DNA of 64,000 nt from Alphaproteobacteria bacterium (lineage in GTDB: Bacteria > Pseudomonadota > Alphaproteobacteria > Acetobacterales > Acetobacteraceae): positions 9,546 to 73,545 of the forward strand of contig JADZEB010000025.1 of assembly GCA_020850755.1 (NCBI GenBank). Direction: 5' to 3'. The translations under genes and the position numbers were made by a program. The notes beneath the pieces are model-generated. The model saw only the letters and a program-made list of their open reading frames with translations, made no database searches and was not told where the DNA came from. Of this stretch, positions 1 to 39,366 are shown one piece after another (position 1 is the stretch's first letter; each line of letters opens with the position of its first letter).

Positions 1-679
1 CGTTCACCAGGATGTCGGTCGCGGCCAGGGCCTGCGTCGTCGGCGGCCAGGCGGCCACCACCGCGCCCGGCACGCTCGCCGCCGCCTGCGCCGCGGCCAG
101 GATGGTGCGGTTGCTGAGCGCGACCCGCGCCCCGCCGCCGGCAAGCGCCGCGGCGATCGCCCGGCCGGTGGCGCCGCAGCCCAGCACCATCACCCGCCGC
201 CCGGACAGGTCGCCGGCCTCGGCCCGCAGCGCGGCGAGCGCGGCATGGCCGTCGCTGTTCGCGCCTTCGACCCCGAGCGGCGTGCGATAGAGCGCATTCA
301 CCGCCCCGGCGGCGTGCGCGACCGGATCTATCCGCGCGAGCAGGCGCGCGACGCGTCCCTTGTGCGGCACCGCCACCGCGCCGCCCAGGAAGCGCGGGTC
401 GGCATGGAGCGCTTCGACCAGCGCCGGCAGCGCCGCCGCCTGCACGTCGAAGGGCAGCATCGCCGCATCCATGCCGAGCGCGGCGAACGCGGCATCCCAG
501 AGGCGCGGAGAGCGCGCCCCGCGCGAGGGGCACGCACCGATGATCGCCGCATAGCGCGCCGTGCGCAGATGGACGCGATTGTCGAGCAGCCGCGCGAACA
601 GCTGCTCATGAACCCGCTCGTCCTGGCAATCCTCGCGCAGCGGGGCAGGCGCGGCCAGCATGGGCCCGGCGGCCGGCAT
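1..679 (-). CDS. Shikimate dehydrogenase-family (AroE-like) NAD(P)-dependent oxidoreductase; 3' end runs off the window
   Basis: Absent from the ORF track because it has no stop inside the window. Manual minus-strand translation from ATG 679-677 gives MPAAGPMLAAP...YAAIIGACPSRGARSPRLWDAAF...GGAVAVPHKGRVARLL...AGAVNALYR...GANSDGHAALAAL...LSGRRVMVLGCGATGRAIAAALAGGGARVALSNRT... This shows the K/N/D substrate-site motifs and the glycine-rich Rossmann loop of shikimate/quinate dehydrogenases. The ATG lies 3 nt after the stop of the upstream gene. Confidence 0.6.
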   Translation of the reverse strand, partial: MPAAGPMLAAPAPLREDCQDERVHEQLFARLLDNRVHLRTARYAAIIGACPSRGARSPRLWDAAFAALGMDAAMLPFDVQAAALPALVEALHADPRFLGGAVAVPHKGRVARLLARIDPVAHAAGAVNALYRTPLGVEGANSDGHAALAALRAEAGDLSGRRVMVLGCGATGRAIAAALAGGGARVALSNRTILAAAQAAASVPGAVVAAWPPTTQALAATDILVN

Positions 680-682
680 GGC

Positions 683-1594
683 CTAGGCCGCCTCGCGAAG
701 GTCGGGCCTGACCTGGCGGCCGAGCGCATGCGCGATCCGGTCGAGATCACGCATAAGCCGCGAGAAGGCGGCATAGTCGATCGCCTGCAGCGGATCCACC
801 GCCGCCCTCGCCGGCTCGGGATGCACTTCCAGCATCACCCCGTCGGCGCCCGCCGCGACCGACGCTAGCGCCAGCGGCGCGACCCACTCGCGCCAGAAGG
901 TCGCGTGCGAGGGATCGGTGATGACCGGCAGGTGCGTCACCTCGCGCGCCGCCGGCACCACCTGCAGATCGAGCAGGAAGCGCGAGGTGGCGCGGTGCGT
1001 GTGCGGGGCGCTGATGCCGCGCTCGCACAGCACGACATTGTGGTTGCCCTCGACCATGATGTACTCCGCCGCGCCCAGCCAGTCGCGCAGCGACGCGCCG
1101 AAATGCCGCTTGAGCAGGATTGGCTTGCCCGTGCGCGCCGCCGCCGTGAGCAGCGGGTAGTTCTGCATGTTGCGCGCGCCGATCTGGACCATGTCGGCAA
1201 CCGCGCACACACCCGGAAGCTGCGCCTCGCTCATCACCTCGGTGACGACGAGAAGTCCGGTCTCGGCGCGTGCCTCGGCCAGCCAGCCAAGCGCCTCGGC
1301 GCCCGGCTCGAAATAGCTCGCGCTGCGATAGGGGAAGGTCAGCGGCTTGAAGGCACCGCCGCGCAGGAGGCTCGCGCCATGTGCCTTGGCCGTGCGCGCG
1401 ATATCCAGGATCAGCGCGCGGCTTTCGACCGTGTTCGGTCCCGCCATCACCGGCAACGTCTCGGCACCGAAGGCAACGCCGCCCACCTCGACGATGCTGC
1501 GATGGCCGGGATGTTTCGCCGCCGCGAGCGGGAACTTCGAGCGCATATCCTCCGCCGTGATGTCCTTGCCCGGCGCGGCATTCTCGATGGTCAT
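683..1594 (-). CDS. DAHP synthase / KDO8P synthase family (class I-beta-like) PEP-utilising aldolase, divergent active-site motifs
   Basis: 303-aa ORF with ATG start. Family motifs are LRGGAFKP, VQIGARNMQNYPLL, KPILLKR, AAEYI..GN..VVLCERGI, ITDPSH, GADGVMLEVHPEP. Atypical features are GPNTVES where metallo-enzymes have GPC..ES, and KPLT instead of KPRT. Confidence 0.7.
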   Translation of the reverse strand: MTIENAAPGKDITAEDMRSKFPLAAAKHPGHRSIVEVGGVAFGAETLPVMAGPNTVESRALILDIARTAKAHGASLLRGGAFKPLTFPYRSASYFEPGAEALGWLAEARAETGLLVVTEVMSEAQLPGVCAVADMVQIGARNMQNYPLLTAAARTGKPILLKRHFGASLRDWLGAAEYIMVEGNHNVVLCERGISAPHTHRATSRFLLDLQVVPAAREVTHLPVITDPSHATFWREWVAPLALASVAAGADGVMLEVHPEPARAAVDPLQAIDYAAFSRLMRDLDRIAHALGRQVRPDLREAA

Positions 1595-1600
1595 TGCGCG

Positions 1601-2746
1601 TCAGCCCTCCATGTATGCCGGTCGATGGTCCGGTGCGGTCTCCGGCGCGGCGGGATCGATGCCGAGCCGCGCCGAATGCGCCCGCTCGGCCAGCGTGACC
1701 CAAGCGCCGCGCTCCATGCTGGCGTAGAGCGCGTGCAGCAGTTGCAGCGACTTCGCCGCCTCGGCCACGGACACCGGCACGAGCGCCGGATCGCGCGCGC
1801 GCACCGCTGCCAGCATCGCGCGCAGGCAGCCGAGATGGCCGTTGCCATAGCCGTCGCGCACGACCTCGGAATGGGCGGCGCAGGCGGCATCGTCGGACGG
1901 ATCGCGTGCTGCCGGCTCCCACGCCTCCAGGCGGTTAAGCCCGACGCCGCCCACCCGCGCATAGGCGCCCTCGCCGACGATGGTCAGCGCCGCCTCGTGG
2001 TCCTGCGGGCGCGCCGCGGTGGTGGCCTCGATCGTGCCCATGGCACCCGAGGCGAAGCGCAGCACCGCCACGGCGGTGTCCTCGGCTTCCAGCCGGTTGA
2101 CGCGTGCCGCGCCATGCGCGCACACGGCCGCCACCGGCCCCATCAGCCATTGCAGCGCGTCGAGATGGTGGATCGCCTGCTGCGCCAGCACCCCGCCATC
2201 GAGCCGCCAGGTGCCGTGCCAGCCATCCTCGTAATAGGGCTGGCGGCGGCACCAGTGGACGCGCACCGAGCCGAGCACGGCGCGCCCGAAGCGCCCGCCA
2301 TCGATCGCCGCGCGCAGGAAGCGCAGCGGCGCGTTGAAGCGGTTCTGCTTGACCACGCCGAGCAGCGCGCCCACCCGCGCGGCCGCCTGCGCCATGCGCG
2401 TCGCGTCATCCGGGCGCAGGCAGACCGGCTTCTCCACCAGTACGGAGAGGCCCGCCTCGAGCAGCGCGTTGGCGTGGCCGGCATGGTTGCCGCTCTCGGT
2501 CAGCACGCAGACAAGGTCGGGGGCGTGCGCCGCAAGCCCGGCCATCTCCGCCACCGCCGCGCAGCCGAACTGTGCGACGAAGGGCGCCATGCGCTCGGGC
2601 CGGCGGTCGCACACGGCGACGAGCTCGGCCTCGGCGGCGAGCGCGCCTGCCAGGAGCTCGCGATAGCGCTGCGCGACGCGCCCGCAGCCGAGCAAGGCAA
2701 TACGCACGCGCGGGCCTGGCATGGGATCGAGCGGATCACGCGGCAT
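1601..2746 (-). CDS. Gfo/Idh/MocA family NAD(P)-dependent sugar oxidoreductase
   Basis: N-terminal Rossmann RIALLGCGRVAQRY, then the EKP motif (VLVEKPV) and a C-terminal alpha/beta domain. I chose start ATG 2746 because GGAGG lies 6 nt upstream. The longer ORF-track start 2872 would run through the upstream gene. Confidence 0.75.
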   Translation of the reverse strand: MPRDPLDPMPGPRVRIALLGCGRVAQRYRELLAGALAAEAELVAVCDRRPERMAPFVAQFGCAAVAEMAGLAAHAPDLVCVLTESGNHAGHANALLEAGLSVLVEKPVCLRPDDATRMAQAAARVGALLGVVKQNRFNAPLRFLRAAIDGGRFGRAVLGSVRVHWCRRQPYYEDGWHGTWRLDGGVLAQQAIHHLDALQWLMGPVAAVCAHGAARVNRLEAEDTAVAVLRFASGAMGTIEATTAARPQDHEAALTIVGEGAYARVGGVGLNRLEAWEPAARDPSDDAACAAHSEVVRDGYGNGHLGCLRAMLAAVRARDPALVPVSVAEAAKSLQLLHALYASMERGAWVTLAERAHSARLGIDPAAPETAPDHRPAYMEG

Positions 2747-3890
2747 GTCGCACCTCCGTGCTGGTGCGCGCAGCCGGACGCAGCGCCGGGTGCGGGCGGC
2801 CCCAGGCCAGTGCGCGATAGAGCGATGCGTGCAGGCTCGCGGTGCGCGCCGGATCGAACAGGGCCTCGACACGCCGGCGCGCGCGCGCGATCAGCGCCAC
2901 GCGCCCCAGCCCGGCGGTGGTGGCGCGGCGCAGCGCGGCAGCGAGCGCCCCGGCATCGCCCTGCGCCGCGAGATGGCCCTCGACCCCATCGGCGATCAGC
3001 TCGGCAGTGCCAGGCAGCCGCGATGCGACCACCGGCACGCCGAGCGCCATCGCTTCCACCGCCGCGAGCGGCAATCCCTCCCAGCGCGAGGGCAGCAGCA
3101 ACGCGCCGGCCCCGGCCAGCTTCGCGAGCAGGGTCTCGCGCGGCAGCGTGCCCAGCATCTCGATCCGGTCGGCGAGGCCCGCGCGCGCCGCCGCGCGCCG
3201 GAAGGCGGGGCCGAGGGGTCCGTCGCCGATCACCCGCATCCGGTAGCCGTCGCGGGCGAGACAGCCCAGCACCTCGATCGCCAGGAGCGGGTTCTTCTGC
3301 TCGACCAGCCGCCCGACGAAGGCGATCAGCCGCAGGTCGGGCACCCCGGCCGCCGGCAACGCGGGAAGTCCGATCGCGGCATGGCACACCGCCTGGGGTG
3401 TGGCGGCAGGCACGAGGCGCCAACAGCGCGCGATCGCGGCATCGGCGGCGCAGCAGAAGATCACGCCGGCGGCGGCACGCCCGATCGCGGCCTCGGCCAG
3501 CGCGCCGAGATGGCGCGTGCCCGCAGACTTCCCGGTGAAATGGTAGCCATGCACCGAATAGAGCATCGGCACCCGCAGGCGCAGGCGCGCGCCCAGCATC
3601 GCGAAGGCGGCGCGCCCGCCATGCGCATGCAGCAGCGCAGGCCGCAGCCCGTGCAGGCGGCGCGCGAGCGAGAGGGCGAGTGCGGGATCGAAGCGGCTGC
3701 GGAAGAAGCGCGCCGGGTGCACGATCACGCCCATGCGGGCCGCCTCGGCCGCGAGGTGCGAGTCCGCTTCTGTGAGCAGATGCGTCTCGATGCCGGCCTC
3801 GCGCGAGAGGCCCGCGAACAGCGCGAGCAGGTGCGTGGTGCAGCCGCCCGCCGCCCCGTCGGCCACCGCATGCAGGATGCGCAGCGTCAT
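2736..3890 (-). CDS. Glycosyltransferase, GT-B fold, GT4-like
   Basis: 384 aa. C-terminal signature LLLPSRWEGLPLAAVEAMALGVPVVAS..G..ELI (the E-x7-E region) is typical of GT4 retaining glycosyltransferases. The ATGA overlap at 3887-3890 couples it to the upstream gene. Confidence 0.8.
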   Translation of the reverse strand: MTLRILHAVADGAAGGCTTHLLALFAGLSREAGIETHLLTEADSHLAAEAARMGVIVHPARFFRSRFDPALALSLARRLHGLRPALLHAHGGRAAFAMLGARLRLRVPMLYSVHGYHFTGKSAGTRHLGALAEAAIGRAAAGVIFCCAADAAIARCWRLVPAATPQAVCHAAIGLPALPAAGVPDLRLIAFVGRLVEQKNPLLAIEVLGCLARDGYRMRVIGDGPLGPAFRRAAARAGLADRIEMLGTLPRETLLAKLAGAGALLLPSRWEGLPLAAVEAMALGVPVVASRLPGTAELIADGVEGHLAAQGDAGALAAALRRATTAGLGRVALIARARRRVEALFDPARTASLHASLYRALAWGRPHPALRPAARTSTEVRHAA

Positions 3891-4615
3891 GCCCCGCCTC
3901 CCGGCGCGGGGGCGCGCCGGTTGACGATGAAGCTCTTGCCGTGCCAGCCGAACAGGTGCCAGTCGACCAGCGCGATCCCGGGATGCGCGGCACGGAACTC
4001 GGCCAGCGCACGCTGCTCGCCGCGCGTCGCATCGCCCGCGAAGCAGAAATAGTCGTCGAAGCAGAGCACGGTGCCGGTTTGCAGATAGGGCACTAGCCAG
4101 GCCAGCGCATCGCGCGTGGATTCATAGAGGTCGCAGTCGATGAACACGAGCGCGGCGCGGCGCAGCGAAAGGCGCATGCGCAGGCCCTCGGTCAGGCTGT
4201 CGCGATAGAAGCCCGGCACGGCGGTGTAGCGCTCGCGCGGCACGCCCAGCGCGCGGGCGGCCTGCTCGAAGGTGGGCAAGTCCATCGCGAACTGGCCGCG
4301 CGCGAAGGTGCTGCCGGCATCGGGGCCGCGCGGATCGGGCAGACCGGCGAAGGAGTCGAACACATAGAGATGCCAGGGCAGCGCGAAGCGCCGCGCCACC
4401 TTCCAGGCCGCGGCGAAGCTGCGCGCGCGGCAGCAGCCGAATTCGAGATAGTCGCCCGCGATGCGGTTGGTGTGGATGAACTCCGCCGCCAGCCGGATCA
4501 TCGGCGCATAGGCGTGGTTGGAGCGCGCCGCCTGCGCCCGCTCGACCAGCCGGGCGAATCCCTGCCAGGCAGGGCGCACCGCACGGCGCCAGAGCGGAGC
4601 GGCGATCGCGCTCAT
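3887..4615 (-). CDS. TylF/MycF-like (macrocin O-methyltransferase family) SAM-dependent sugar O-methyltransferase
   Basis: 242 aa. GDYLEFGCCRARS (SAM loop), VFDSFAGLP and VFIDCDLYESTRDAL (metal-binding D-x-D-x-Y-E-S) resemble the TylF family. ATGA overlap with the upstream gene at 4612-4615. Confidence 0.7.
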   Translation of the reverse strand: MSAIAAPLWRRAVRPAWQGFARLVERAQAARSNHAYAPMIRLAAEFIHTNRIAGDYLEFGCCRARSFAAAWKVARRFALPWHLYVFDSFAGLPDPRGPDAGSTFARGQFAMDLPTFEQAARALGVPRERYTAVPGFYRDSLTEGLRMRLSLRRAALVFIDCDLYESTRDALAWLVPYLQTGTVLCFDDYFCFAGDATRGEQRALAEFRAAHPGIALVDWHLFGWHGKSFIVNRRAPAPGGGA

Positions 4616-5826
4616 GGCATCGCCGCCTCGGCAGCATGTGCCGGTTCGCGCGCAAGCAGGTCGTCATAGCCAAGCAGCCGGGCGCCGCAGTCGAGATAGG
4701 GCCCGGCCTGGCGGCGCACATCCTCCTCCCAGGCGGAGGCGATCAGCACGATGCGCGGCCGCAGGCGGCGTAGCATCCCCGGCGGCAGCACCGGATTGCC
4801 GGTCACGGCCAGGCGCTTGCCATGGTTGCGCGGATTGGGATCGACGCATGGCATCGCGGCATCGAAACCGCCGTCGATCGCATACTGCGTGGCGATCGCC
4901 CCGCTGCCCCAGAGGGCGATCCCGCCTGCGGCGGCGAGCGCGCGCAGGGCACGGCGATAGCGCGCGAAGCCCTGGGCGAAGCGCGCCAGCATCTCGGCCT
5001 GTGCCGCGTCATCCATCGCGGGCCGCACGACGGGCACGCTGCCGCCCGGCACGCGGCGGGCGAAGGCACACAGGAACGGGAAGCGCATGGGGCCGAACGC
5101 ATTCTCGATCCGCACGGCGTCGCCAAGCTCCGCCCCGCGCAGGCAGGCAAGCAGGCTCGCCGGCGCGAAGTAGCTCAGATGGTCGGCGTGGAACTCGGGC
5201 AGATAGCCGGCCGAGAGCGACCACTGGCTGTTCGGCACCTCGACATAGGCGAGCCCGCCCGGCGCCAGCAGCCGCGCCGCGTCGGCGAGGAAGTCGAGCG
5301 GTGCCGGCACATGCTCGAGCACGTGGCGGAGCACGATGGCATCGAAGCGCTCGGCGCCGAAGTCATCGGCGCGGAACGGCCGCAGATGCATCTCGATGCC
5401 GAACTCCTGCGCCCGCAACGCGACCGGCGACGGCTCCACCCCTGTCACGCGCAGGCCGCGATCGCGCAGCCGGAGCAGGAAACTGCCATCGAATGCGCCG
5501 ATCTCCAGCACGCGCGCCCCGCGCGGCAACTCGGTGGCGATGCGCGCGGCAACCGCATCGTTCCACGCAACCTGCGAGGGCGAGAGGGCGGGCGGTGTCT
5601 TGCCCTCATAGGCGGCGCCATAGAGGCGCGCGAGCAGGGGCTCGACCGGCCCGGCAAGATCGAGATGGCCCGAGACATGCCCGGTGCCGGGATCGCAGAC
5701 GAGGTCCATCGGCGCGACCGCATCGGGCGCCGGTGCGGCCGCGGGCTTGTTCGCGAGCGCGATCGCCGGCAGCCGCAGGAAGGGCACCAGCATCCGGCCA
5801 GTCAGGCGGCAGGGCAACCTGGTCAT
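4612..5826 (-). CDS. Class I SAM methyltransferase with C-terminal NDP-hexose C-methyltransferase-type domain (TylCIII-like)
   Basis: SAM loop VLEIGAFDGSFL and acidic loop RVTGVEPS, followed by RHVLEHVP..FL. The C-terminal block IALWGSGAIATQY..VDPNPRNHGKRLAVTGNPVLPP...IVLIASAWEEDV resembles the C-methyltransferase C-terminal domain. Start ATG 5826 gives an ATGA overlap with the upstream stop. The ORF-track N-terminus (to 6171) is Arg-rich junk overlapping the upstream gene. Confidence 0.65.
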   Translation of the reverse strand: MTRLPCRLTGRMLVPFLRLPAIALANKPAAAPAPDAVAPMDLVCDPGTGHVSGHLDLAGPVEPLLARLYGAAYEGKTPPALSPSQVAWNDAVAARIATELPRGARVLEIGAFDGSFLLRLRDRGLRVTGVEPSPVALRAQEFGIEMHLRPFRADDFGAERFDAIVLRHVLEHVPAPLDFLADAARLLAPGGLAYVEVPNSQWSLSAGYLPEFHADHLSYFAPASLLACLRGAELGDAVRIENAFGPMRFPFLCAFARRVPGGSVPVVRPAMDDAAQAEMLARFAQGFARYRRALRALAAAGGIALWGSGAIATQYAIDGGFDAAMPCVDPNPRNHGKRLAVTGNPVLPPGMLRRLRPRIVLIASAWEEDVRRQAGPYLDCGARLLGYDDLLAREPAHAAEAAMP

Positions 5827-7052
5827 GTCGCCTCGCGCGGATGCGGCAGCGCCGGCGCTGCGATCGCGCGGCCCGCGCCGGGACGCACCATGCGCAGCAA
5901 TGTGCGGTCTAGCCGCCGCCCGATCCGCTCGTGCCAGCGCCGCCAGCCGGACTGGTAGAGACGCCATTGCGCGCCGACCTCGGCACCGCCCGCGCCCGGC
6001 GGCCCGCCGACAGCGTGATCGGTACGATCGGCGACCCTGCCGCTGTCGAGCGCGGCGGCCACGCGCAGCCACACCGCATCGACCGAGGGCGCGGGGTGGG
6101 CGAGATAGTGCATCGGCGTGCCCATCATGTTCTGCCGCCGTGTCTCGGGCTCGGCCGAGGCATGGCCCCATTCGATCGTCGGCACGCCGAAGCCGAGCAT
6201 CACCAGCATCGCGCCCGAAAGCCCGCCCACCGCGAACCGGCAGCGCCGCGCCGCCGCCACCTGCAGGCCGAGCCGGCGCTCGTCGGGCACATGGATCAGG
6301 TCGATGGCACCGTGCGGCACCTCGCCTTCGGCGAACCAGCAGCCGCCCGGCTCGCCGATCACCACGACGCGCGGGCGTAACGGATGTTCGAGCAGCCGCG
6401 CGATGAGGTCGTGGTAGTTCTCCTCGGGCCAGTTCTTGTCCGGCCTGCGCCCGGTGCGCCGCCGCGGCAGCACGGCGACCGCCGGCCGGTCGCCCGCGAA
6501 CAGATCCGGCGCAATCGAGGACAGCATGTCCTCGTCGGCCGGATCGGTCTCGATCGGTCTCCAGAGCTGCACCTCGGGCTCGATGCGCAGGGTCACCGGC
6601 GCGGGCGAGAACCGTCCAAGCGGCGAGAACCAGGTGCCCCAGCTTCGCGCGGGATCGAACAGGCAGGTGAACAGGCCCGCCGGCGCCAGCGCCCTCCTGA
6701 ACGGCCCGACCTCGGCACGGTAGTAGGCGAGCAGCCGCTCATGATGCAGCGCCACGCAGCGCGCATAGGACGCACCGTCCGGTATGGCCGGCCAGTCGCC
6801 GAACCACTGGTCGCAAACATAGGCGTTGGCGGAGAGCCGCAGCTCGCGGAACCAGTCGGGATGCGCATGCACAGTGACGCCCCGGCCATAGAGCGGCGCG
6901 CGGCCCGGAAAGCTCGCGACATGGATGTCGTAGTCGCCAGCGGCTTCGGCGGCGAAGCGGCGGACATAGCCGGCGAAGAAGGACTGCTCCCAGCCGAACT
7001 CGCCGACGAAGGGACCGAACAGGATGGCGGGCTTGCGGGCCATGCGGCGCAC
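5823..7052 (-). CDS. Putative glycosyltransferase, GT9 (heptosyltransferase)-like GT-B fold; otherwise uncharacterised
   Basis: 409 aa. The weak resemblance to GT9 rests on RRPDKNWPEENYHDLIARLLE..PRVVVIGEPG and LQVAAARRCRFAVGGLSGAMLVMLGFGVPTI (compare K.WP...vvl.G and DSG..HlAaa.G.P). The start is ambiguous between GTG 7052 and ATG 7043, and neither has a clear SD. Confidence 0.4.
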   Translation of the reverse strand: MRRMARKPAILFGPFVGEFGWEQSFFAGYVRRFAAEAAGDYDIHVASFPGRAPLYGRGVTVHAHPDWFRELRLSANAYVCDQWFGDWPAIPDGASYARCVALHHERLLAYYRAEVGPFRRALAPAGLFTCLFDPARSWGTWFSPLGRFSPAPVTLRIEPEVQLWRPIETDPADEDMLSSIAPDLFAGDRPAVAVLPRRRTGRRPDKNWPEENYHDLIARLLEHPLRPRVVVIGEPGGCWFAEGEVPHGAIDLIHVPDERRLGLQVAAARRCRFAVGGLSGAMLVMLGFGVPTIEWGHASAEPETRRQNMMGTPMHYLAHPAPSVDAVWLRVAAALDSGRVADRTDHAVGGPPGAGGAEVGAQWRLYQSGWRRWHERIGRRLDRTLLRMVRPGAGRAIAAPALPHPREAT

Positions 7053-7057
7053 CGGGG

Positions 7058-8665
7058 CTAGAGGATCGCGCGCACGAAGCGCAGGAGGGCGGCGCGCGAG
7101 AGCGCCTCGCGATTGCCGACGATGGTGCAGGCGATCGCGCCGGCCGCCGCCGCGAGCAGGGCGGCCGCGATTCCGCGCAGCCGCGCCGCCCGGCAGAGAG
7201 TCAGCATCGCCAGCACCGCGTCGCCGGCGCCGACCGGATCGACGATCCGCGTGGCGAGCGCCGGCACGGCAGTGACGCCGCCTGCCTCGCCGAGGCCGAG
7301 GCCATGCCGCCCACGCGTGACGACCAGTTCGCGGCAGCCGAGCCGCGCGCCCAGCACAGGCCAGAGCGCGGCGAACTCCCCCTCGCGGCAGCCGACGGCA
7401 AGCCGGGCTTCGAGCTCGTCGATGCAGACCAGATCGGCGCCGCGATAGCGCGTCACCAGGTTGAAGCCGAAATTGGTGGAGTTGGTCTGCACGTTGAGCG
7501 CAACAAAGGGCAATGCCGGGCGCAGCGCGGCCCAGGCTTCGGGCCCCAGCAGGCCGTGGCCGAAATCGGCCCAGATCACCGCGTCGGCATGCGCGAGAGC
7601 CGCCGGCGGGCGGTCCACGACCTGGACCATGAAGGCGCGCGCGGCGGCGGCACCGTCATCGAGATGGGCGAGCTCGAACAGCTTCTGCGGCCGCTCATCC
7701 GTGCCCGCCCGATCCCCCGGCGGCGCGCCGGGGTTGAGCACGTTCGGATAGCCGCTGGCAAGATAACGGATCTTGTGCGGCGTGGTGCCATCCGGCACGA
7801 CCACCCAGTCCGCTCGCACATTGGCGGGCAGGCTCTCGGCCATCAGCGCATCGAAGCGCCAGTTGCGCTCGCCCCTCTGGGCGATCAGCGTCACCTCGCG
7901 CGCGAAGGCCCCCACATGGCGCGCGATCGCCGCCGCCCCGCCTGCCATCAGCTCCGTCCCGCGCCAGAGCGCGGATATGGCCGGCGATTTCGACGTCGTG
8001 CCGACCGGCGTGCAGGACAAGTATTCGTCCACGATCACATCGCCGCAGACACCGACCGAGAGCGCGGCGAAGCGATCTCCTATGATCTCCTCGATCTCGT
8101 CGCGCGAGGTCTCGCGCCGCACCCGGTCGAGGAAGGCGTGCGTCTCGGGCGGCAGGTCGAGCAGCCTGAAGGATCGCATCAGCGCGGATGATGAGTGCTT
8201 TTCGGTATCGGTAATGACCAGCCGCCCGCCATGCGTCTCGACCGCGGCCCGCTCGGACGCGAGCGCGGCATCGGCCTCGCCGGCAAGCGCCGCCGCATAG
8301 TCCGGGCCCTTGAAGTAGCAGTCGGGGCGAACGAGCGCGATCGCGCCGATAGCGGTCGCTTCCGCGGCGATGAACACCGCATCGACCGGTTCGAGCGCGG
8401 CGAGGAAGCCTGCCCGCGTCTCGGCATCGAACAATGGCCGGCCCGGCCCCTTGGCGATGAAGGCATCCGCCGTGAGCGAAACCACAAGGCAATCCACCTC
8501 GGCGCGGGCGGCGGCGAAATGCGCCAGATGCCCCGGATGGACGAGATCGAAGCAGCCATGGCAGAGCCCGATCCGCGCCCCTTGCGCGCGGCGGGCGGCA
8601 AGGTAGGCTTGCAGCCCCGCGGCATCGAACCGCTTGGCCGCGCGGCGCCGGCTGATCGCGTTCAT
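7058..8665 (-). CDS. Bifunctional nucleotidyltransferase / PfkB-family sugar kinase (HldE/RfaE-like, domains in reversed order)
   Basis: 535 aa. The N-terminus IGLCHGCFDLVHPGHLAHFAAAR..DCLVVSLTAD...RPLF..E.R is a cytidylyltransferase-fold HxGH motif like RfaE domain II. The C-terminal ~330 aa form a ribokinase/PfkB fold ending in DPVGAGDAVLA (the DxxGAGD anion hole). Confidence 0.75.
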   Translation of the reverse strand: MNAISRRRAAKRFDAAGLQAYLAARRAQGARIGLCHGCFDLVHPGHLAHFAAARAEVDCLVVSLTADAFIAKGPGRPLFDAETRAGFLAALEPVDAVFIAAEATAIGAIALVRPDCYFKGPDYAAALAGEADAALASERAAVETHGGRLVITDTEKHSSSALMRSFRLLDLPPETHAFLDRVRRETSRDEIEEIIGDRFAALSVGVCGDVIVDEYLSCTPVGTTSKSPAISALWRGTELMAGGAAAIARHVGAFAREVTLIAQRGERNWRFDALMAESLPANVRADWVVVPDGTTPHKIRYLASGYPNVLNPGAPPGDRAGTDERPQKLFELAHLDDGAAAARAFMVQVVDRPPAALAHADAVIWADFGHGLLGPEAWAALRPALPFVALNVQTNSTNFGFNLVTRYRGADLVCIDELEARLAVGCREGEFAALWPVLGARLGCRELVVTRGRHGLGLGEAGGVTAVPALATRIVDPVGAGDAVLAMLTLCRAARLRGIAAALLAAAAGAIACTIVGNREALSRAALLRFVRAIL

Positions 8666-8692
8666 GGCATCCTGCCCTGACGAATGGCTCGA

Positions 8693-9601
8693 CTAGAGGT
8701 TGCCCGCCGCCACCGCATGGCGGAGATCGATCCAGGGTCGCCAGGCAAGCAGGCTGGCCGCCTTGCGCGTGTCGGCGTGCGTGATGCGCGCCTCGCCCGG
8801 TCGCTCGGGCGCATGGTCCCACTCGCTCGAGAACAGGCGCGCGACGTCCTTCACGCTGAATGTGTCGCCGGTGCCGATGTTGAACACGTCGTCCTCGATG
8901 TCATAGGCCTCCATCGCGTTCAGGTTGGCGCGCGCCACATCGCGCACATGCACGAAGTCGCGCCGCTGCTCGCCATCTCCGGTCACGGTCAGGCGCTCGC
9001 CCTTGCGGCTCTTGTGGTGGAAGATGCCGACCACCGAGCTGTAGGCGTTGAAGGGACTCTCCGCGGCATAGCTGCGCGGGCCGAACACGTTGAAGTAGCG
9101 CAGCGCCACGACCGTGATGCCCAGCCGGGGCCCAAGCAGCATCGCGTAGCGCTCGGCGCCGTATTTCTGCAGCGCATAGGGGCTGAGCGGGTCGATCGGC
9201 GCCGTTTCCGGCGTGGGCAGCACGGCCGGCGTGCCATAGACCGCCGAGGAGGAGGACAGCACCAGGCGCTTGATGCCGGTCGCGCGCATCGCCTGCATCA
9301 CATGCACGGTGGCGCGCACATTGGCATCGTCATGCCCGATCGGATCGGCGAAGGAGGGCTGGATGCGCGGCAGGGCCGCAAGGTGGAACACGCCCGCCGC
9401 CCCCTCCATCGCCGCGGCCAGCGCCGTGCTTGGCGATCGCGCGAGGTCGTGGCGCAGCACGCAGACATCGTTGGGCAGGTTCTCGCGCCGGCCGGTGGAG
9501 AAATTGTCCACGACCACCACCTTGTGGTCGGCCTCGCGGAGAAGCTCGACCACATGCGAACCGATGAAGCCGGCCCCGCCGGTAACGACATACTTCGCCA
9601 T
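8693..9601 (-). CDS. NAD-dependent sugar-nucleotide epimerase/dehydratase (extended SDR, GalE/HldD-like)
   Basis: MAKYVVTGGAGFIGSHVV (the GxxGxxG motif), SSSAVYG, and the catalytic YxxxK in YALQKYGAE. Start ATG 9601 has GGGGAG upstream. The ORF-track start 9790 would overlap the upstream gene. Confidence 0.8.
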   Translation of the reverse strand: MAKYVVTGGAGFIGSHVVELLREADHKVVVVDNFSTGRRENLPNDVCVLRHDLARSPSTALAAAMEGAAGVFHLAALPRIQPSFADPIGHDDANVRATVHVMQAMRATGIKRLVLSSSSAVYGTPAVLPTPETAPIDPLSPYALQKYGAERYAMLLGPRLGITVVALRYFNVFGPRSYAAESPFNAYSSVVGIFHHKSRKGERLTVTGDGEQRRDFVHVRDVARANLNAMEAYDIEDDVFNIGTGDTFSVKDVARLFSSEWDHAPERPGEARITHADTRKAASLLAWRPWIDLRHAVAAGNL

Positions 9602-9635
9602 GACTGGCTCCCCTGTCTTTCCCCTGTTGAGCGGA

Positions 9636-10763
9636 TCACGCCGCCGCGCGCGCGCGGCCGAGCACGGCCTCGGCCACGTCGAGCGCATCGCGGATGGCGT
9701 CTGGAATGCCCTTGTACTGGAACGAGCCATGCCGCCCGATCGAGTGGAAATCGGCCGGGAACATCGCCTGGTACTGGGCGAAGCGTGCACGCTCGACCGC
9801 CGACTGCACCGGGTAGTAGCGCGAGGTCTCGTTCGGGAGCTCGATCCCGATCAGCGTGTGCGGCGAGGCGTGGCCGGTGATCTTCTTGAACTCGGTCACG
9901 CGCGTATAGGGCTCGTCGCCCGAGTAGTGGACCCAGGCGATGCCCTCCGGCAGTGCCTGGGCGACCGGCAGGACGAGCGGGATGAAGCTGCGCCCGGAAT
10001 AGCGCAGCCGGCCATAGGTGAAGCCGAACAGCGCATCGACCGGCAGGGTGTTGACGATGACATCGGCGGCCAGCACCCCGGCGCTGGTGTGGACCTCGCG
10101 GCGGGCGGAGTCGAATCGCGTCACCCGGGTCGAGGGCAGGAAGCGGGTGCCGGCGAGCGCCTTGGCGAAGAACCCGTTATAGCCGTCGGGCGCTTCCGGG
10201 TAGCCCTGGAACTGGTCCTGATAGAGGCGGACATCGCCCTCGCGAATGGGCGTGCCGCGATTGACCCACTCCCAGTTGGCGGCCAGGGCGCGGTTGGACT
10301 CGACCCCCCACATCTTGCGCGAGTAGCGATCGACGAACTTGCGGTAAAGGGTGGGGCCGATGGCATCCAGCCAGTAGGCCTCGAAATCCTCGGCGCGCGG
10401 GCGGCGGGCGCGGCAGGCGGCCAGCTCGGCCTCGATCGCGGCCGCGTCCGGCATGCGCGGGATGTCCGCGCCCTGCAATGGATAGTTGTAGAAGGCGCCG
10501 TCGGCGGCGACATAGGTCCAGGAGATCGTGTCGAAGCGGCGGATCGGCGTGAGCGCGGTCAGGGTGGCGATCACCGCCTCGTCGCGCGAGAAGAAGACGC
10601 GCGGGCCGAAGGTGTAGGGGTGGCCGCCATACCAGGCGGTACGGCAGCCACCCCCAGGCTCGGCGGCGGCCTCCAGGACCGTGGTCTCGAACCGATCCTT
10701 GAGCAGATGGGCGACGGTGCTCCCCGCAAACCCCGCGCCCAAGACTAGAAGCCGCTTTGCCAC
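9636..10763 (-). CDS. UDP-galactopyranose mutase-like FAD-dependent pyranose/furanose mutase
   Basis: The dinucleotide fold KRLLVLGAGFAGSTVA..L, then GGHPYTFGPRVFF, YSRKMWG and GRHGSFQYKGIPDAIRDA resemble the Glf family. I prefer GTG 10763, which has AGGGGGA 6 nt upstream, over the ORF-track GTG 10802, which sits inside the predicted -10 region. Confidence 0.7.
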   Translation of the reverse strand: MAKRLLVLGAGFAGSTVAHLLKDRFETTVLEAAAEPGGGCRTAWYGGHPYTFGPRVFFSRDEAVIATLTALTPIRRFDTISWTYVAADGAFYNYPLQGADIPRMPDAAAIEAELAACRARRPRAEDFEAYWLDAIGPTLYRKFVDRYSRKMWGVESNRALAANWEWVNRGTPIREGDVRLYQDQFQGYPEAPDGYNGFFAKALAGTRFLPSTRVTRFDSARREVHTSAGVLAADVIVNTLPVDALFGFTYGRLRYSGRSFIPLVLPVAQALPEGIAWVHYSGDEPYTRVTEFKKITGHASPHTLIGIELPNETSRYYPVQSAVERARFAQYQAMFPADFHSIGRHGSFQYKGIPDAIRDALDVAEAVLGRARAAA

Positions 10764-10793
10764 AGCGCATCCCCCTGCGTGCTGACATGCGGG

Positions 10794-10822
10794 GATATAC
10801 ACGTATAAGTTGTTTGTGACAA
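10794..10822 (-). promoter_or_regulatory. Sigma70-like promoter for the mutase-to-aroE-like genes (-35 TTGTCA, 17 nt spacer, -10 TATATC on the minus strand)
   Basis: The minus strand reads TTGTCA (10822-10817), then caaacaacttatacgtg, then TATATC (10799-10794). It sits in the only markedly AT-rich intergenic stretch of the cluster, about 30 nt upstream of the GTG/SD at 10763-10776. Confidence 0.4.
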
Positions 10823-10870
10823 GCGTGGAATACGGGGATAACCCCCAAAATTCCGCATCCGCAATAGAAA

Positions 10871-10882
10871 TTAACTAGTTAA
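10871..10882. promoter_or_regulatory. Perfect 12-bp palindrome TTAACTAGTTAA, a possible regulator binding site
   Basis: Read directly from the sequence. It lies 3 nt downstream of the gmhA stop and about 50 nt upstream of the -35 at 10817-10822. Confidence 0.35.
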
Positions 10883-10885
10883 TTA

Positions 10886-11485
10886 TCATACGATTAACAA
10901 TCGTTCCTCGAGTAGTTCGAGAATCGCGTGTCCAACCACCATATGTAGTTCCTGCACCCGTGCCGTCTCATCTGATGGGACAACCAGCGCAATGTCGCAC
11001 AGCGCCCGCGCGGGGCCACCATTGCCGCCCAGAAGCCCGACTGTGACAATTCCGGTCGCGCGGGCCATCTTGAGCGCCTCGATCACATTGGCCGAGCGGC
11101 CAGAGGTGGTCAGGGCGATCAGCAGGTCCCCCGCGCGACCCAGCCCCGAAAGTGGGCGGGCGAACACCTGGTCGAAACCGAAATCATTGCCCGCGGCCGA
11201 GAGCGCCGTCGCATCGCCCCCCAGCACCACCGCCGGCAGCGATCGCCTTACAACCTTTGCGCGAAGCCGGATCAGCAGTTCGGTGGCCAGATGCTGCGCA
11301 TCCGCGGCCGAGCCGCCATTGCCGCAGAAGAAGATCGTGCCCCCGGCGCGCAGGCTACGCTCGGCTGCGCCGAGGATACCGAGCAGACGGTCCTCCTGCT
11401 CGGCAAAGAGCTGCGCCGTCAGCCGCGCCGCCTCGGCACCGATCTGCTTCAGCCGCGCCCGCTCGCTCGCCTGCCCGTCGCCCAT
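10886..11485 (-). CDS. gmhA: Phosphoheptose isomerase (sedoheptulose-7-phosphate isomerase), SIS domain
   Basis: FFCGNGGSAADAQHLATEL, ...ALTTSGRSANVIEAL, ...GLLGGNGG, ...VPSDETARVQELHMVVGH are classic GmhA/SIS motifs. ATG 11485 has AGGAG 10 nt upstream. The ORF-track start 11509 is a TTG. Confidence 0.8.
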   Translation of the reverse strand: MGDGQASERARLKQIGAEAARLTAQLFAEQEDRLLGILGAAERSLRAGGTIFFCGNGGSAADAQHLATELLIRLRAKVVRRSLPAVVLGGDATALSAAGNDFGFDQVFARPLSGLGRAGDLLIALTTSGRSANVIEALKMARATGIVTVGLLGGNGGPARALCDIALVVPSDETARVQELHMVVGHAILELLEERLLIV

Positions 11486-11539
11486 GCCCCGCGCGCTCCT
11501 GAACCACAAGCCAGACGCCCCTGCCCCCGCCGAGACGGG

Positions 11540-11568
11540 TTGGACAGGTCCCCGAGCCGGCTTATAGT
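11540..11568 (+). promoter_or_regulatory. Sigma70-like promoter (TTGGAC, 17 nt spacer, TATAGT) upstream of ATG 11608
   Basis: TTGGAC 11540-11545, a 17-nt spacer, then TATAGT 11563-11568. AAAGGA (SD) follows at 11597-11602 and ATG at 11608. Confidence 0.45.
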
Positions 11569-11607
11569 GCCGCCATCGCCATTTGGCGAGCCGATGAAAG
11601 GACGACC

Positions 11608-12375
11608 ATGAACGCGCAACCTCCCATCCGGGTCTTCTGGCAGCCTGGCTGAACCAGCTGCCTAAGGGTCAAGGAATTCCTCTCGGTCCGTGGGATCGAG
11701 TTCGACAGCGTAAACGTTCTCGCCGATCCGCAGGGGCTTGCCGACATGCGCAAGCTCGGGGCGCGTTCCGTGCCCGTTGTGTCGCGCGGGGACAAATTCA
11801 CTTTCGCCCAGAATATCAAGCACGTAATCGCCTTCCTCGACCTCAAGGAGGATGGCGGCCCGAAGCTTTCGCCGACCCAGCTGGTGGAGCGGATGAACGT
11901 GATCCTGGGCGCGGCACAGCGCTTCATCCGGCAGATGCCGGACGACAAGCTGGAAACCCTGCTTCCCAACCGCCCGCGGACCTATCGCGTGCTCGGCCAC
12001 CACCTGTTCCGGCTGACCGAGCATTTCGTCGAGTGCGCGCGCGATGGTGCGGCCATCGCCTATGACGGGCTGGTGGCCCCGCCGCCCGAGGACATGCGCA
12101 CATCGGCCGCGATCGCCGAGTACGGCGCCAATGTCGTCGGCCAGGTCAATGCCTGGTGGGCGCAGGAGAAGGACAAAACCGGCAAGCGGCCGGTGCAGAC
12201 CTATTACGGCCAGCAGGAGCTGCACGAGCTGATGGAGCGCACCACTTGGCACTCCGGCCAGCACGTCCGGCAATGGATGATGATGCTCGAGATGGCAGGC
12301 ATCAAGCCCGACCAGCCGCTCTCGGATGCCGACTTCGCCGGCCTGCCGATGCCGCAGAAGGTGTGGGACGAGTAG
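11608..12375 (+). CDS. Glutaredoxin-fold (UxxC) / DinB-YfiT-like fusion protein with in-frame TGA at 11650-11652; candidate selenoprotein, alternatively a recently disrupted gene
   Basis: ATG 11608 is in the same frame as the track ORF 11746-12375, and TGA 11650 is the only interruption. Translation is MNAQPPIRVFWQPG-[TGA]-TSCLRVKEFLSVRGIEFDSVNVLADPQGLADMRKLGARSVPVVSRGDKF... This is a beta1-CxxC-alpha1...cis-Pro(VP) thioredoxin-fold layout with the TGA at the first Cys position. The C-terminal part (HHLFRLTEH..., WHSGQH) is DinB-like. Confidence 0.5.
11682..11700 (+). other. RNA hairpin downstream of the in-frame UGA (candidate bacterial SECIS-like element)
   Basis: CUCGGUCC-GUG-GGAUCGAG forms an 8-bp stem (one G-U pair) with a 3-nt loop that starts with G. 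The stem begins 30 nt after the UGA and the loop 38 nt after it. Confidence 0.3.
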
Positions 12376-12408
12376 GCCGCCGCGACCGACCGATGCCGCA
12401 GAGCGAGC

Positions 12409-12443
12409 GGCCCCGCCTGGCAATCGGGCGGGGCCGTTTGCTT
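12409..12443 (+). terminator. Rho-independent terminator-like hairpin after the DinB-like gene
   Basis: GGCCCCGCC (12409-12417), a 9-nt loop, GGCGGGGCC (12427-12435), then GTTTGCTT. Confidence 0.55.
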
Positions 12444-12543
12444 GCCGCTCGTGCCCGGCTGGCCACAGCGCCAGGGCCGGGCGACACGGCCACGCCGGAT
12501 TGCCGCCATTGCCCGCCCACGGCTAGGCTTGCGCCAGCGCAGC

Positions 12544-12607
12544 GCCTGCCGCCAAGCGAAGCCTGCCGCCAAGCGAAGCCTGCCGCCAAGCGAAGCCTGC
12601 CGCCAAG
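12544..12607. repeat. 17-bp tandem repeat GCCTGCCGCCAAGCGAA, 3 full copies plus a 13-nt partial
   Basis: Perfect copies at 12544-12560, 12561-12577 and 12578-12594, plus a partial copy at 12595-12607. It is intergenic and ends 6 nt before ATG 12613. Confidence 0.9.
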
Positions 12608-12612
12608 GGGAC

Positions 12613-13386: not shown

Positions 13387-13437
13387 CAGCAAGGCGAGAG
13401 CAGACGGGACAGAGCCCCGCCCCTACTCCACCGCCAC

Positions 13438-14745: not shown

Positions 14746-14949
14746 CAATGCGTTCTCTCCCGTTGGTCCGGTAGCGGGGCACAAGGCTTGCCAGGATCCG
14801 CGGCGAATGCAAGCGGCAGGCTGCGGGACACGGCCCTTCCGGGCGGAACGGAACGGTGGCACAATAATTTCAGCAGGCGCTCAACAAGCACCAAGATCGC
14901 GACCCGGACCGCACCAAGCAGGGCCGCACAACCCAGGAGGGAGGAAACC

Positions 14950-16530: not shown

Positions 16531-16568
16531 CGGAGAGGGCCGGGCCGAAGGCGGGCGGCGCAAGGCCG

Positions 16569-18459: not shown

Positions 18460-18480
18460 GACGACGCAAAGGAGAAACGC

Positions 18481-19956: not shown

Positions 19957-19959
19957 GCG

Positions 19960-39330: not shown

Positions 39331-39338
39331 CCGAATAC

Positions 39339-39366
39339 GCCGGCCGCTCCGCGCGGGGCGGCCGGC
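39339..39366 (+). terminator. Intra-operon GC hairpin after the binding-protein gene (attenuator or mRNA-stabilising element)
   Basis: GCCGGCCGC (39339-39347) pairs with GCGGCCGGC (39358-39366), followed by TTCC. Confidence 0.35.

Follow-up and report, generated by a model that had tools for sequence, protein, structure and literature searches.

An eleven-gene surface-glycan operon in an alphaproteobacterium combines predicted heptose genes with a DAH7PS-like clade that may be a new family of ulosonic-acid synthases

We analyzed a 64,000-nt stretch of DNA from an Alphaproteobacteria bacterium of the family Acetobacteraceae (GenBank assembly GCA_020850755.1, contig JADZEB010000025.1, positions 9,546 to 73,545 of the forward strand), which is called the window throughout, and focused on an operon of eleven minus-strand genes for surface-sugar synthesis (G1 to G11) at its left end. 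The genes fall into two modules: module A (G4 to G11), with predicted roles in making, methylating and transferring a heptose, and module B (G1 to G3), built around G2, a phosphoenolpyruvate (PEP) aldolase that resembles 3-deoxy-D-arabino-heptulosonate 7-phosphate synthase (DAH7PS, or DAHP synthase). On the right the cluster ends at about 11.5 kb; on the left the window edge interrupts it within G1. The genes and the spacer between G11 and G10 are as follows (aa, amino acids).

2..679, minus strand: G1, AroE-like dehydrogenase of module B; its N-terminal 226 aa lie in the window and about 75 C-terminal aa are cut by the edge
683..1594, minus strand: G2, DAH7PS-like PEP aldolase belonging to the KPLTFP/AGPN clade, 303 aa, central gene of module B
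1601..2746, minus strand: G3, Gfo/Idh/MocA NAD(P) oxidoreductase, 381 aa, module B
2736..3890, minus strand: G4, family 4 (GT4, GT-B) glycosyltransferase, 384 aa, module A
3887..4615, minus strand: G5, TylF-family O-methyltransferase-like protein, 242 aa, module A
4612..5826, minus strand: G6, TcaB9/TylC3-type sugar C-methyltransferase-like protein, 404 aa, module A
5823..7052, minus strand: G7, rare GT-B fold protein, 406-409 aa, predicted heptosyltransferase-like, module A
7058..8665, minus strand: G8, nucleotidyltransferase (N-terminal) plus PfkB-type sugar kinase (C-terminal), 535 aa, module A
8693..9601, minus strand: G9, GalE-type extended short-chain dehydrogenase/reductase (SDR), 302 aa, predicted nucleoside diphosphate (NDP)-sugar C4 epimerase/oxidoreductase, module A
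9636..10763, minus strand: G10, FAD enzyme of the UDP-galactopyranose mutase (UGM) family, 375 aa, predicted NDP-heptopyranose/furanose mutase, module A
10764..10885, minus strand: AT-rich spacer between G11 and G10, 122 nt, with a promoter-like element and a palindrome
10886..11485, minus strand: G11, GmhA-like sedoheptulose-7-phosphate isomerase, 199 aa, the first gene of the operon, module A

The window has about 70% GC and its raw lists of open reading frames are full of spurious frames, and codon-position GC was used to single out one frame per locus. All eleven minus-strand frames between positions 2 and 11485 showed the signature of true coding sequence, with GC at third codon positions of 0.76-0.91 against 0.49-0.59 at second positions. 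The recomputed gene coordinates were identical to those of an earlier reading made from the letters alone (the sequence-only reading), and the ATGA overlaps at 3887-3890, 4612-4615 and 5823-5826 matched as well, as did the 11-nt overlap of G3 and G4 at 2736-2746, which reads ATGCCGCGTGA. Its gaps of 3, 6, 5, 27, 34 and 122 nt were also reproduced, except that the 5-nt gap between G8 and G7 is likely one of 14 nt, given that the ATG at 7043 is the favoured start of G7 (406 aa in the public annotation, P0121; Met4 invariant across the alignment of homologues). The eleven-gene surface-sugar operon is real.

The 122-nt spacer has a GC content of 46%, compared with 71% for the operon, and contains TTGTCA-N17-TATATC on the minus strand (10794-10822). 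The stop codon of G11 is immediately followed by a palindrome of 16 bp without mismatch, AATTAACTAGTTAATT (10869-10884), which could be a regulator binding site. The promoter-like element that had been described here is present as a -35/-10-like motif, but a generic promoter scan did not flag it because the -10 hexamer lacks the final T; that promoter and terminator scan of the minus strand gave nothing above background, and an Rfam scan of positions 1-13000 detected no RNA element. From its sequence, a promoter in 10764-10885 is plausible. GC content also steps within the operon, from 67.2% in G9-G11 through 72.5% in G4-G8 to 73.4% in G1-G3, which could mean that it was assembled from parts of different origin.

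We then searched each protein against Pfam, NCBIfam and PDB sequences or by fold, and reproduced all eleven family assignments of the sequence-only reading. For module B these had been a Gfo/Idh/MocA oxidoreductase, a divergent member of the DAH7PS/KDO8PS family and an AroE-like dehydrogenase. G2 has a DAH7PS-type TIM barrel (Pfam DAHP_synth_1, PF00793, 2.7e-52), its top PDB match was the DAH7PS of Pyrococcus furiosus (1zco, 5e-65), and public annotation (NCBI, JGI) names the protein 3-deoxy-7-phosphoheptulonate synthase. It scored 284 bits against TIGR01361 (cutoff 268) and 86.6 bits against the KDO8P synthase model TIGR01362 (cutoff 314), and it carries KPLTF, not the KANRS motif. Alignment with 1zco revealed that AGPC is replaced by AGPN in G2, with loss of the metal-ligand Cys, and KPRTSP by KPLTFP; in the G2 clade the KPLTFP loop is followed by a 3-residue insertion, and DPSHxxG becomes DPSHxxF. 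The KPR(S/T) loop is the phosphate site for erythrose-4-phosphate according to established structural work on DAH7PS and KDO8PS, and Cys versus Asn at the substituted position separates metal-dependent from metal-independent KDO8PS.

The 120 best database matches of G2 (64-100% identity) all carried AGPN and KPL(T/S)F. A scan of GTDB representative genomes and JGI metagenomes, with a few additions from context look-ups, yielded 165 loci (given below as L and a number), 34 of which were KPL-type (28 with Asn and 6 with Cys), whereas the canonical loci were all KPR(T/S)-type with Cys. This Asn majority and Cys minority, noted at the KPLTFP-clade loci L007, L019, L062, L103, L110, L125 and L082, mirrors the split between metal-independent and metal-dependent KDO8P synthases. 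In a 160-sequence alignment built from these loci (35 KPL-type, namely the 34 loci and G2, and 125 canonical) and grouped by identity-based clustering, every sequence had its nearest neighbour within its own type, and the KPL-type and canonical sequences formed separate clusters. Nine residues were invariant in both groups (K83, R141, K162, R163, E191, R192, H230, H258 and D267), and these are the PEP-binding and catalytic set, kept in G2. The discriminating columns (KPL/canonical) were L85/R, F87/S, E96/G, S168/T, D171/E, P197/F, F233/G and P268/G, together with the insertion bearing R90, and the first two, L85 versus R and F87 versus S, separated the groups at 100%/98-100%. Judged by its sequence, G2 is not a canonical DAHP synthase.

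G3 matched the N- and C-terminal GFO_IDH_MocA domains of Pfam, with 3q2k (9e-67) and 3q2i (2e-62) as its top PDB matches, which we take to be WlbA UDP-GlcNAcA 3-dehydrogenases. A passage in PMC13656337 cites Thoden & Holden 2011 for WlbA. G1 matched Pfam Shikimate_dh_N (4.7e-14) and Shikimate_DH, scored 73-84 bits against the NCBIfam aroE models (cutoffs 200-295), and in the PDB matched the shikimate/quinate dehydrogenase 3tnl and the 5-ketofructose reductase 7cok, the latter a precedent in the shikimate dehydrogenase family for the reduction of a keto-sugar. Across the AroE-like clade a GARSP loop is found where 3tnl, the best PDB match of G1, reads HSLSP, and it occupies the place of the SxS loop that binds the carboxylate in AroE. 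The aligned Lys (PHK/PYK) and Asp (NTDG) motifs, which hold the catalytic pair of AroE, are kept in these partners.

The genomic context of the KPLTFP clade differed sharply from that of canonical DAH7PS. Counting partners within 5.5 kb in loci with at least 3 kb on both flanks, we found CTP_transf_3 in 15, an AroE-like gene in 13, a family 2 glycosyltransferase-like (GT2-like) gene in 13 and Gfo/Idh/MocA in 12 of the 17 KPL-type loci; the corresponding counts for the 68 canonical loci were 0, 1, 0 and 0. In the high-GC loci L005, L006, L081 and L082, where longest-ORF calls are unreliable, genes were taken from tblastn and precomputed gene tables. The hosts included Pelagibacteraceae (SAR11) single-cell genomes, one Prochlorococcus single-cell genome, Ilumatobacteraceae, Candidatus Uhrbacteria and Saccharibacteria (candidate phyla radiation, CPR), Methylomirabilota, Thalassobaculum and other Rhodospirillales. 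In many phyla, homologues of the DAH7PS-like and AroE-like genes are thus found in synteny with sugar genes, and they are not canonical enzymes of the aromatic pathway; the refuting condition set by the sequence-only reading, that such synteny never occurs, fails. The order of the genes varies from lineage to lineage, which suggests functional coupling rather than inherited synteny.

The cytidylyltransferases of the module scored best against PseF and then KdsB, and across the loci examined module B contained neither a conserved phosphatase nor, in any case, a dehydroquinate-synthase-like cyclase. The GT2-like protein shares 41-66% identity across phyla and is often fused to a second nucleotidyltransferase-like domain, giving proteins of 454-471 aa (L001, 7560-8924; L004, 7574-8938; L062, 10921-12330; L085, 19925-21340; L172, 7540-8922). 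Such conservation is above expectation for a polymer-specific glycosyltransferase, and the protein may be a pathway enzyme. In the Pelagibacteraceae single-cell genome AG-430-B09 (L003, 5538-10888), the PseI (394 bits) and PseF (264 bits) equivalogs lie directly upstream of the trio of aldolase, AroE-like and Gfo/Idh/MocA genes, with an HMGL-like aldolase, an ATP-grasp protein and an aminotransferase also near, so that in this SAR11 genome module B is interleaved with a pseudaminic-acid locus. The KPLTFP enzyme was considered as a replacement for PseI and rejected, since L003 has a full-scoring PseI beside the trio. In Methylomirabilota (L167-L169, 11477-14200), the Wzx, CTP_transf_3, Gfo/Idh/MocA, aldolase and AroE-like genes are followed, just past the module, by two genes for sulfotransferases, which hints at a sulfated glycan in that lineage.

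For module A the sequence-only reading had named a GmhA, a heptose kinase/nucleotidyltransferase, an SDR epimerase/dehydratase, a Glf-like mutase, a TylCIII-like C-methyltransferase, a TylF-like methyltransferase, and GT4 and GT9-like transferases. G11 matched Pfam SIS_2 (1.7e-19) and scored 158 bits against the NCBIfam gmhA model TIGR00441 (cutoff 209), and its top matches were all phosphoheptose isomerases. Pfam placed CTP_transf_like at residues 35-162 and PfkB at residues 407-520 of G8; rfaE_dom_II (95 bits) and rfaE_dom_I (85 bits) both remained under cutoff, PRK11316 gave 126 bits against a cutoff of 521, and the best PDB relatives of the two halves were the cytidylyltransferase-like 5x9q (residues 21-167) and the heptose-7-phosphate kinase 4e84 (405-513). 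G8 therefore carries the domains of HldE (HldC-HldA) in reversed order, with the nucleotidyltransferase at 13-167 and the kinase at about 350-520, an architecture common to about 100 database clusters. A triple fusion from JGI (P0200, 778 aa) joins SIS_2 (GmhA-like), cytidylyltransferase-like and PfkB kinase domains and provides Rosetta-stone support for G11 and G8 acting in one pathway.

G9 matched Pfam Epimerase (1.2e-53), with 173 bits against GalE (TIGR01179) and 107 bits against heptose_epim, both under cutoff, and its best PDB matches (6wjb, 4zrm, WbgU and WbpP) are all 4-epimerases. The SDR call was thus narrowed to a GalE-type, 4-epimerase-like enzyme, which resembles neither HldD nor a 4,6-dehydratase. 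G10 contains NAD_binding_8 with a GAGFAGS motif and matched Pfam GLF (PF03275) at 1.1e-27, with 97.5 bits against a cutoff of 26; its top PDB match was the UGM of Deinococcus radiodurans (3hdq, 2.3e-26), and it gave 90 bits against the UDP-Galp mutase equivalog TIGR00031, under the cutoff of 304. In addition to Pfam Methyltransf_23 (6.8e-24), G6 had as its top PDB matches the D-mycarose 3-C-methyltransferase 4rv9 (2.5e-11, residues 99-385), TcaB9 (3ndi) and the sugar 3-C-methyltransferase 5t64, and the alignment to 4rv9 spans the S-adenosylmethionine methyltransferase domain and the characteristic C-terminal domain; Methyltransf_13 and Methyltransf_14 gave no match at E<0.01, and residues 1-90 contain only two Cys. 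G5 matched Pfam TylF (1.2e-15) and Methyltransf_24, and G4 matched Glycos_transf_1 (1.2e-29) and Glyco_transf_4.

The GT9-like call for G7 held at the level of fold only. The protein had no Pfam or NCBIfam family (Glyco_transf_9 reached 16 bits against a cutoff of 22, E 0.0076), shared words with only 7 relatives in a protein database of 5.8 billion clusters, and by profile search belonged to a modest family of 76 representatives at E<1e-30. The top PDB matches of its AlphaFold (AF2) model (pLDDT 75.9, pTM 0.77) in Foldseek were the GT9 protein 3tov (E 1.5e-6), WaaC (2h1h, 1.8e-6), WaaF (1psw, 1.7e-5) and TibC, and the first three had a Foldseek probability of 1.00 with TM-scores of just 0.40-0.50.

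Next, we examined how the two modules recur. The module A set (SIS_2, the G8-type fusion, GLF, a GalE-like SDR and a TcaB9-like methyltransferase of about 400 aa, with or without a G7 homologue) was seen in a 27.8-kb JGI/NCBI contig, L082, L084 and L085. At least five metagenomic clusters other than the window combine modules A and B, among them the 27.8-kb contig, L082 and L085 and, in part, L086 and L170/L171, with Wzx, Wzy and Wzz nearby; related clusters carry Polysacc_synt, Wzy_C, Wzz, MurJ-like and ATP-binding cassette (ABC) genes. The 27.8-kb contig has Gfo/Idh/MocA, a KPL aldolase (P0011), an AroE-like gene, a 155-aa protein, GT2, a 218-aa protein, CTP_transf_3 and SIS_2 in module B, and its remainder comprises GT1, Wzx, a GmhB-like HAD protein, G7 and G6 homologues, TylF (adjoining the G6 homologue), GLF, an SDR and a G8 homologue. 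L085 contains Wzz, SIS_2, GLF, SDR, G8, Wzy, G7, G6, a flippase, CTP_transf_3, GT2+CTP_transf_3 and Gfo/Idh/MocA, where the contig stops, and L082 contains G8, SIS_2, G7, GLF, SDR, Gfo/Idh/MocA and, truncated at the end of its contig, a KPLTFP aldolase. The module B half appears again in L170/L171, together with Wzy and Wzx and with a SIS_2 gene at the module end. The G6 homologues of the 27.8-kb contig, L084 and L085 have 391-407 aa, and in L084 and L085 G10 homologues of 59-65% identity adjoin the homologues of G8 and G9.

A further relative is L084, from a Deltaproteobacteria metagenome-assembled genome (GCA_017302715.1, 1-16000), where module A (G8 homologue at 49% identity, GLF 65%, SDR 45%, G6-like 38%, and SIS_2) is accompanied by NeuB, UDP-GlcNAc 2-epimerase and CTP_transf_3; this locus has no module B and no G7 homologue, and GT61 and an ABC transporter are present. 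No other observation hints as strongly that module B takes the place of an ulosonic-acid pathway. The proposal in the sequence-only reading of a 3-deoxy-ulosonic acid was strengthened both by this replacement of the trio by a NeuB module and by the frequency of CTP_transf_3 in the well-flanked loci (15/17); Dha, one option named there, stays speculative. The same reading had arranged the genes as one ordered series of steps; the enzyme content stood, but the operon consists of two separable modules and not of one linear pathway.

Based on the observed gene structure, family and fold membership, active-site substitutions and cross-phylum linkage, we propose, with a probability of roughly 0.6, a surface-glycan operon that joins a methylated, possibly furanosidic heptose and a CMP-activated 3-deoxy-ulosonic acid from a new synthase clade. 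All substrates, products and the order of reactions given here are predictions from sequence and context. Positions 1-11,485 would be the promoter-proximal part of an O-antigen/capsule-type operon that supplies two activated sugars and some of the transferases. In module A, G11 would convert sedoheptulose-7-phosphate to heptose-7-phosphate, which the kinase half of G8 would phosphorylate at C1, and after removal of the 7-phosphate by a GmhB encoded elsewhere the nucleotidyltransferase half would form NDP-heptose. The GalE-like and UGM-like genes, which are always neighbours, suggest C4 epimerisation followed by ring contraction, for which the route UDP-Glc to UDP-Galp to UDP-Galf by GalE and Glf offers a parallel; G9 and G10 would thus epimerise or oxidise the sugar at C4 and convert its pyranose ring to a furanose. 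G6 would add a C-methyl branch and G5 an O-methyl group, and the GT9-fold G7 and the GT4 G4 would transfer the sugars.

In module B, G2 would condense PEP with an aldehyde, probably non-phosphorylated, the aldose pocket being remodelled and the metal-ligand Cys replaced by Asn. A PseF/KdsB-family cytidylyltransferase, expected left of the window, would activate the product with CMP, and G3 would oxidise a ring hydroxyl that G1 re-reduces with inversion of stereochemistry, for which the ElaA/ElaC pair, acting on CMP-legionaminic acid, is a direct precedent (PMC13656337). Equally possibly, the aldose would be prepared and set free from an NDP-sugar ahead of the condensation, by the Gfo/Idh/MocA enzyme together with the GT2-like protein and the second nucleotidyltransferase-like domain, an order also found in the routes to pseudaminic and legionaminic acid. 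A 3-deoxy-2-ulosonic acid in its pyranose form is nearly isosteric with quinate and dehydroquinate, and an AroE-family reductase would be a natural fit. More tentatively, at slightly less than even odds, the KPLTFP clade would be a family of bacterial ulosonic-acid synthases not recognised so far, the third after KdsA and NeuB/PseI/LegI, with metal-independent Asn and metal-dependent Cys forms. Together with its fixed partners (the AroE-like and Gfo/Idh/MocA dehydrogenases, the GT2-like protein and one or two cytidylyltransferase-like proteins), it would make an undescribed CMP-activated acidic surface sugar in SAR11, Prochlorococcus, CPR, Methylomirabilota and Rhodospirillales from genes mis-annotated as those of aromatic-amino-acid enzymes.

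Several observations weigh against this proposal. G8, G10 and G11 all score under the NCBIfam equivalog cutoffs, so that heptose specificity is only likely for these three. R90, inserted after the KPLTFP motif, could rebuild a phosphate or carboxylate site, which makes a non-phosphorylated acceptor no more than probable. The nearest solved relatives of G3 act on UDP-sugars, and G3 may precede the condensation. The KPL gene is an orphan in Azospirillum halopraeferens (L081), and the Magnetofaba locus (L166) has only the aldolase and AroE-like pair. The window shows no CTP_transf_3, flippase, polymerase or GmhB, and these are predicted from relatives. A literature search, with most subscription journals out of reach, found no paper on the clade or on module B, and searches on a C-methyltransferase with heptose and mutase and on heptulosaric acid found nothing about this gene set.

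The alternative that survives best, although we consider it unlikely, is that module B makes a small 2-keto-3-deoxy/hydroxy or cyclitol-like acid, which is a non-carbohydrate substituent of the glycan or is used elsewhere, and that the neighbouring cytidylyltransferases belong to the synthesis of other sugars, for instance pseudaminic or legionaminic acid. AroE-family enzymes normally use carbocyclic acids, but in the loci examined the module never includes a cyclase of the dehydroquinate synthase type. The CTP_transf_3 adjacent to the trio in L003 is indeed the PseF equivalog beside a PseI equivalog, yet this locus has a second GT2+CTP_transf_3 pair further on. Similarly, a NeuB/aminotransferase/acetyltransferase set lies near the module in L172, and CTP_transf_3 is missing from the Magnetofaba and Azospirillum loci, whereas 15 of the 17 well-flanked loci have it, many of them without NeuB nearby (L001, L004, L019, L062, L167 and L170).

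Less probable still is a single pathway in which the heptose of module A, or a derivative freed from its nucleotide, is the aldehyde that G2 condenses with PEP, yielding, before activation with CMP, either a ten-carbon 3-deoxy-ulosonic acid or a carbocyclic higher sugar. The two modules do occur together in at least 4 independent clusters, the SIS_2 gene overlaps the end of CTP_transf_3 in the 27.8-kb contig and in L170/L171, and homologues of G8 and G11 lie within 10 kb of the KPL gene in L086; however, a heptose-module gene was found within 10 kb in just 1 of the 17 well-flanked KPL loci, and the SAR11, Prochlorococcus, CPR and Methylomirabilota loci have module B alone. The remodelled acceptor pocket, more hydrophobic and without a conserved phosphate-binding Arg/Ser, could take a free aldose, but L084 pairs module A with a classical NeuB module, and the presence in module A of its own GT9-fold transferase implies that the heptose is transferred as such.

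We give even less credence to sugar tailoring for a glycosylated secondary metabolite, with the DAH7PS-like and AroE-like genes supplying a shikimate-type aglycone precursor and the TylF- and TylC3-like methyltransferases modifying a deoxysugar. Antibiotic sugar pathways are the source of the best solved relatives of G6 and of the Pfam family to which G5 belongs, but the window contains no polyketide synthase, nonribosomal peptide synthetase, cyclase, aminotransferase, or 4,6- or 2,3-dehydratase, and genes of the sort usual in surface-polysaccharide loci (Wzx, Wzy_C, Wzz, MurJ-like and ABC) occur in the relatives. DAHP synthase paralogues do occur in natural-product clusters, but G2 scored 229 bits against BagF/FevY, far under cutoff, and lacks the erythrose-4-phosphate-site residues needed for DAHP. 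Finally, that G2 and G1 are an ordinary DAHP synthase and shikimate dehydrogenase beside a glycan operon is highly improbable despite the NCBI and JGI naming and the TIGR01361 score (284 bits, cutoff 268), given the AGPN and KPLTFP substitutions in G2 (for AGPC and KPR(T/S)SP), the 3- and 6-nt gaps and 11-nt overlap that bind G1-G3 to G4, the linkage to CTP_transf_3, GT2-like and Gfo/Idh/MocA genes that is essentially exclusive to the KPL clade, the aroE scores and changed substrate loop of G1, and the lack of aroB, aroD and aroK nearby.

To the right of 11.5 kb, the window holds divergently transcribed, unrelated genes of metabolism and transport, including DinB-like, racemase-like, histidinol-dehydrogenase paralogue, peptide ABC transporter, hydantoinase and TRAP transport genes. 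An apparent peptide/amino-acid utilisation island without relation to the glycan genes adjoins the operon at 12442-21995 and comprises a PRK07475 Asp/Glu-racemase-like gene, a hisD paralogue (440 bits), a peptidase of the M81/MlrC-like kind and ABC transporter genes of the Opp/Dpp type. A second Gfo/Idh/MocA gene (33007-34110, minus strand), unrelated to G3, has as its neighbours genes for hydantoinase/oxoprolinase A and B (34139-36406 and 39331-41400). Searches of the window bore out the statement in the sequence-only reading that it holds no GmhB, flippase, polymerase or exporter: positions 1-64000 contained no flippase, polymerase or chain-length regulator, and GmhB was absent as judged by one probe sequence and a DxDGT motif scan, which makes this a weak negative. 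That the cluster continues left of position 1, as had been suggested, fits its closest relatives, in which GT2-like, nucleotidyltransferase-like and CTP_transf_3 genes follow downstream of the AroE-like gene and Wzy/Wzx lie nearby.

If our proposal is true, thousands of entries named 3-deoxy-7-phosphoheptulonate synthase and shikimate dehydrogenase are mis-annotated, which would distort metabolic reconstructions such as those of aromatic-amino-acid autotrophy in streamlined marine bacteria. Some of the ocean's most abundant bacteria would then also possess a new route to an acidic sugar of the cell surface, and surface glycans govern interactions with phages and grazers. The KPLTFP clade offers a natural experiment on how the DAH7PS/KDO8PS scaffold shifts acceptor specificity and metal dependence. 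Moreover, the operon and the relatives in which module B is coupled to a possibly furanosidic, C-methylated heptose suggest a glycan structure not yet described, and they provide a defined enzyme set for reconstitution in vitro.

As a whole, the operon is a surface-glycan locus of a known kind, within which module B may be a new ulosonic-acid synthase family. It shares with the HldE-type heptose pathway a GmhA-like isomerase and a fusion of PfkB kinase and nucleotidyltransferase, the best solved relatives of whose halves include a heptose-pathway enzyme, but the fusion in the window is reversed and scores under the equivalog cutoffs, the window has no GmhB, and its SDR is GalE-like and not HldD-like. 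The capsule loci of Campylobacter jejuni HS:10 and HS:41, which have heptofuranoses and predicted GDP-heptopyranose mutases (PMC10680097), are similar in their sedoheptulose-7-phosphate route to a nucleotide-heptose, UGM-family mutase, SDRs, O-methylation and surface-polysaccharide setting, and they feature GDP-6-deoxy-heptofuranoses (PMC10680097, PMC12369002); a CDP-sugar mutase has also been characterised (PMC12369002). C. jejuni, however, uses a GDP route with the GHMP kinase HddA, HddC and 4,6-dehydratase chemistry, whereas the window has an HldE-type route, a C-methyltransferase and a GT9-fold transferase and lacks a dehydratase. Compared with C-methyltransferases of the TcaB9/TylC3/KijD1/MtmC type, G6 aligns with 4rv9, 3ndi and 5t64 over residues 99-385, but those enzymes have a four-Cys zinc N-domain and act in a 2,6-dideoxyhexose context, whereas G6 has two Cys and stands in a heptose context.

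With the type I-beta DAH7PS enzymes of P. furiosus (1zco), Thermotoga maritima (1rzm) and Aeropyrum pernix (1vs1), G2 shares the TIM-barrel family (E 5e-65 to 5e-62) and the PEP-binding and most of the catalytic residues, and it differs in the change of the metal-ligand Cys to Asn, the KPLTFP loop with its 3-residue insertion, the DPSHxxF motif and a glycan rather than aromatic-pathway context. The nonulosonic-acid and Kdo pathways (NeuB/PseI/LegI or KdsA with NeuA/PseF/KdsB) likewise combine a PEP-dependent aldol-type synthase with a CTP_transf_3 protein in glycan loci, and the NeuB-type routes are further similar to module B in lacking a conserved phosphatase and in the equivalent place of the NeuB module in L084; the synthase of module B, however, is neither NeuB-family nor KDO8PS and belongs to a distinct type I-beta DAH7PS-like clade. 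A system with the same three roles is ElaABC, in which ElaB (a CTP-transferase), ElaA (a Gfo/Idh/MocA oxidase) and ElaC (a reductase) epimerise CMP-Leg5,7Ac2 (PMC13656337). Module B differs in having an AroE-family reductase, not an SDR, and an ulosonic acid that would come from a DAH7PS-like enzyme, and its likeness to ElaABC is one of roles, a CTP-transferase working with a Gfo/Idh/MocA oxidase and a further NAD(P)H reductase on a CMP-ulosonic acid, one centre of which is inverted.

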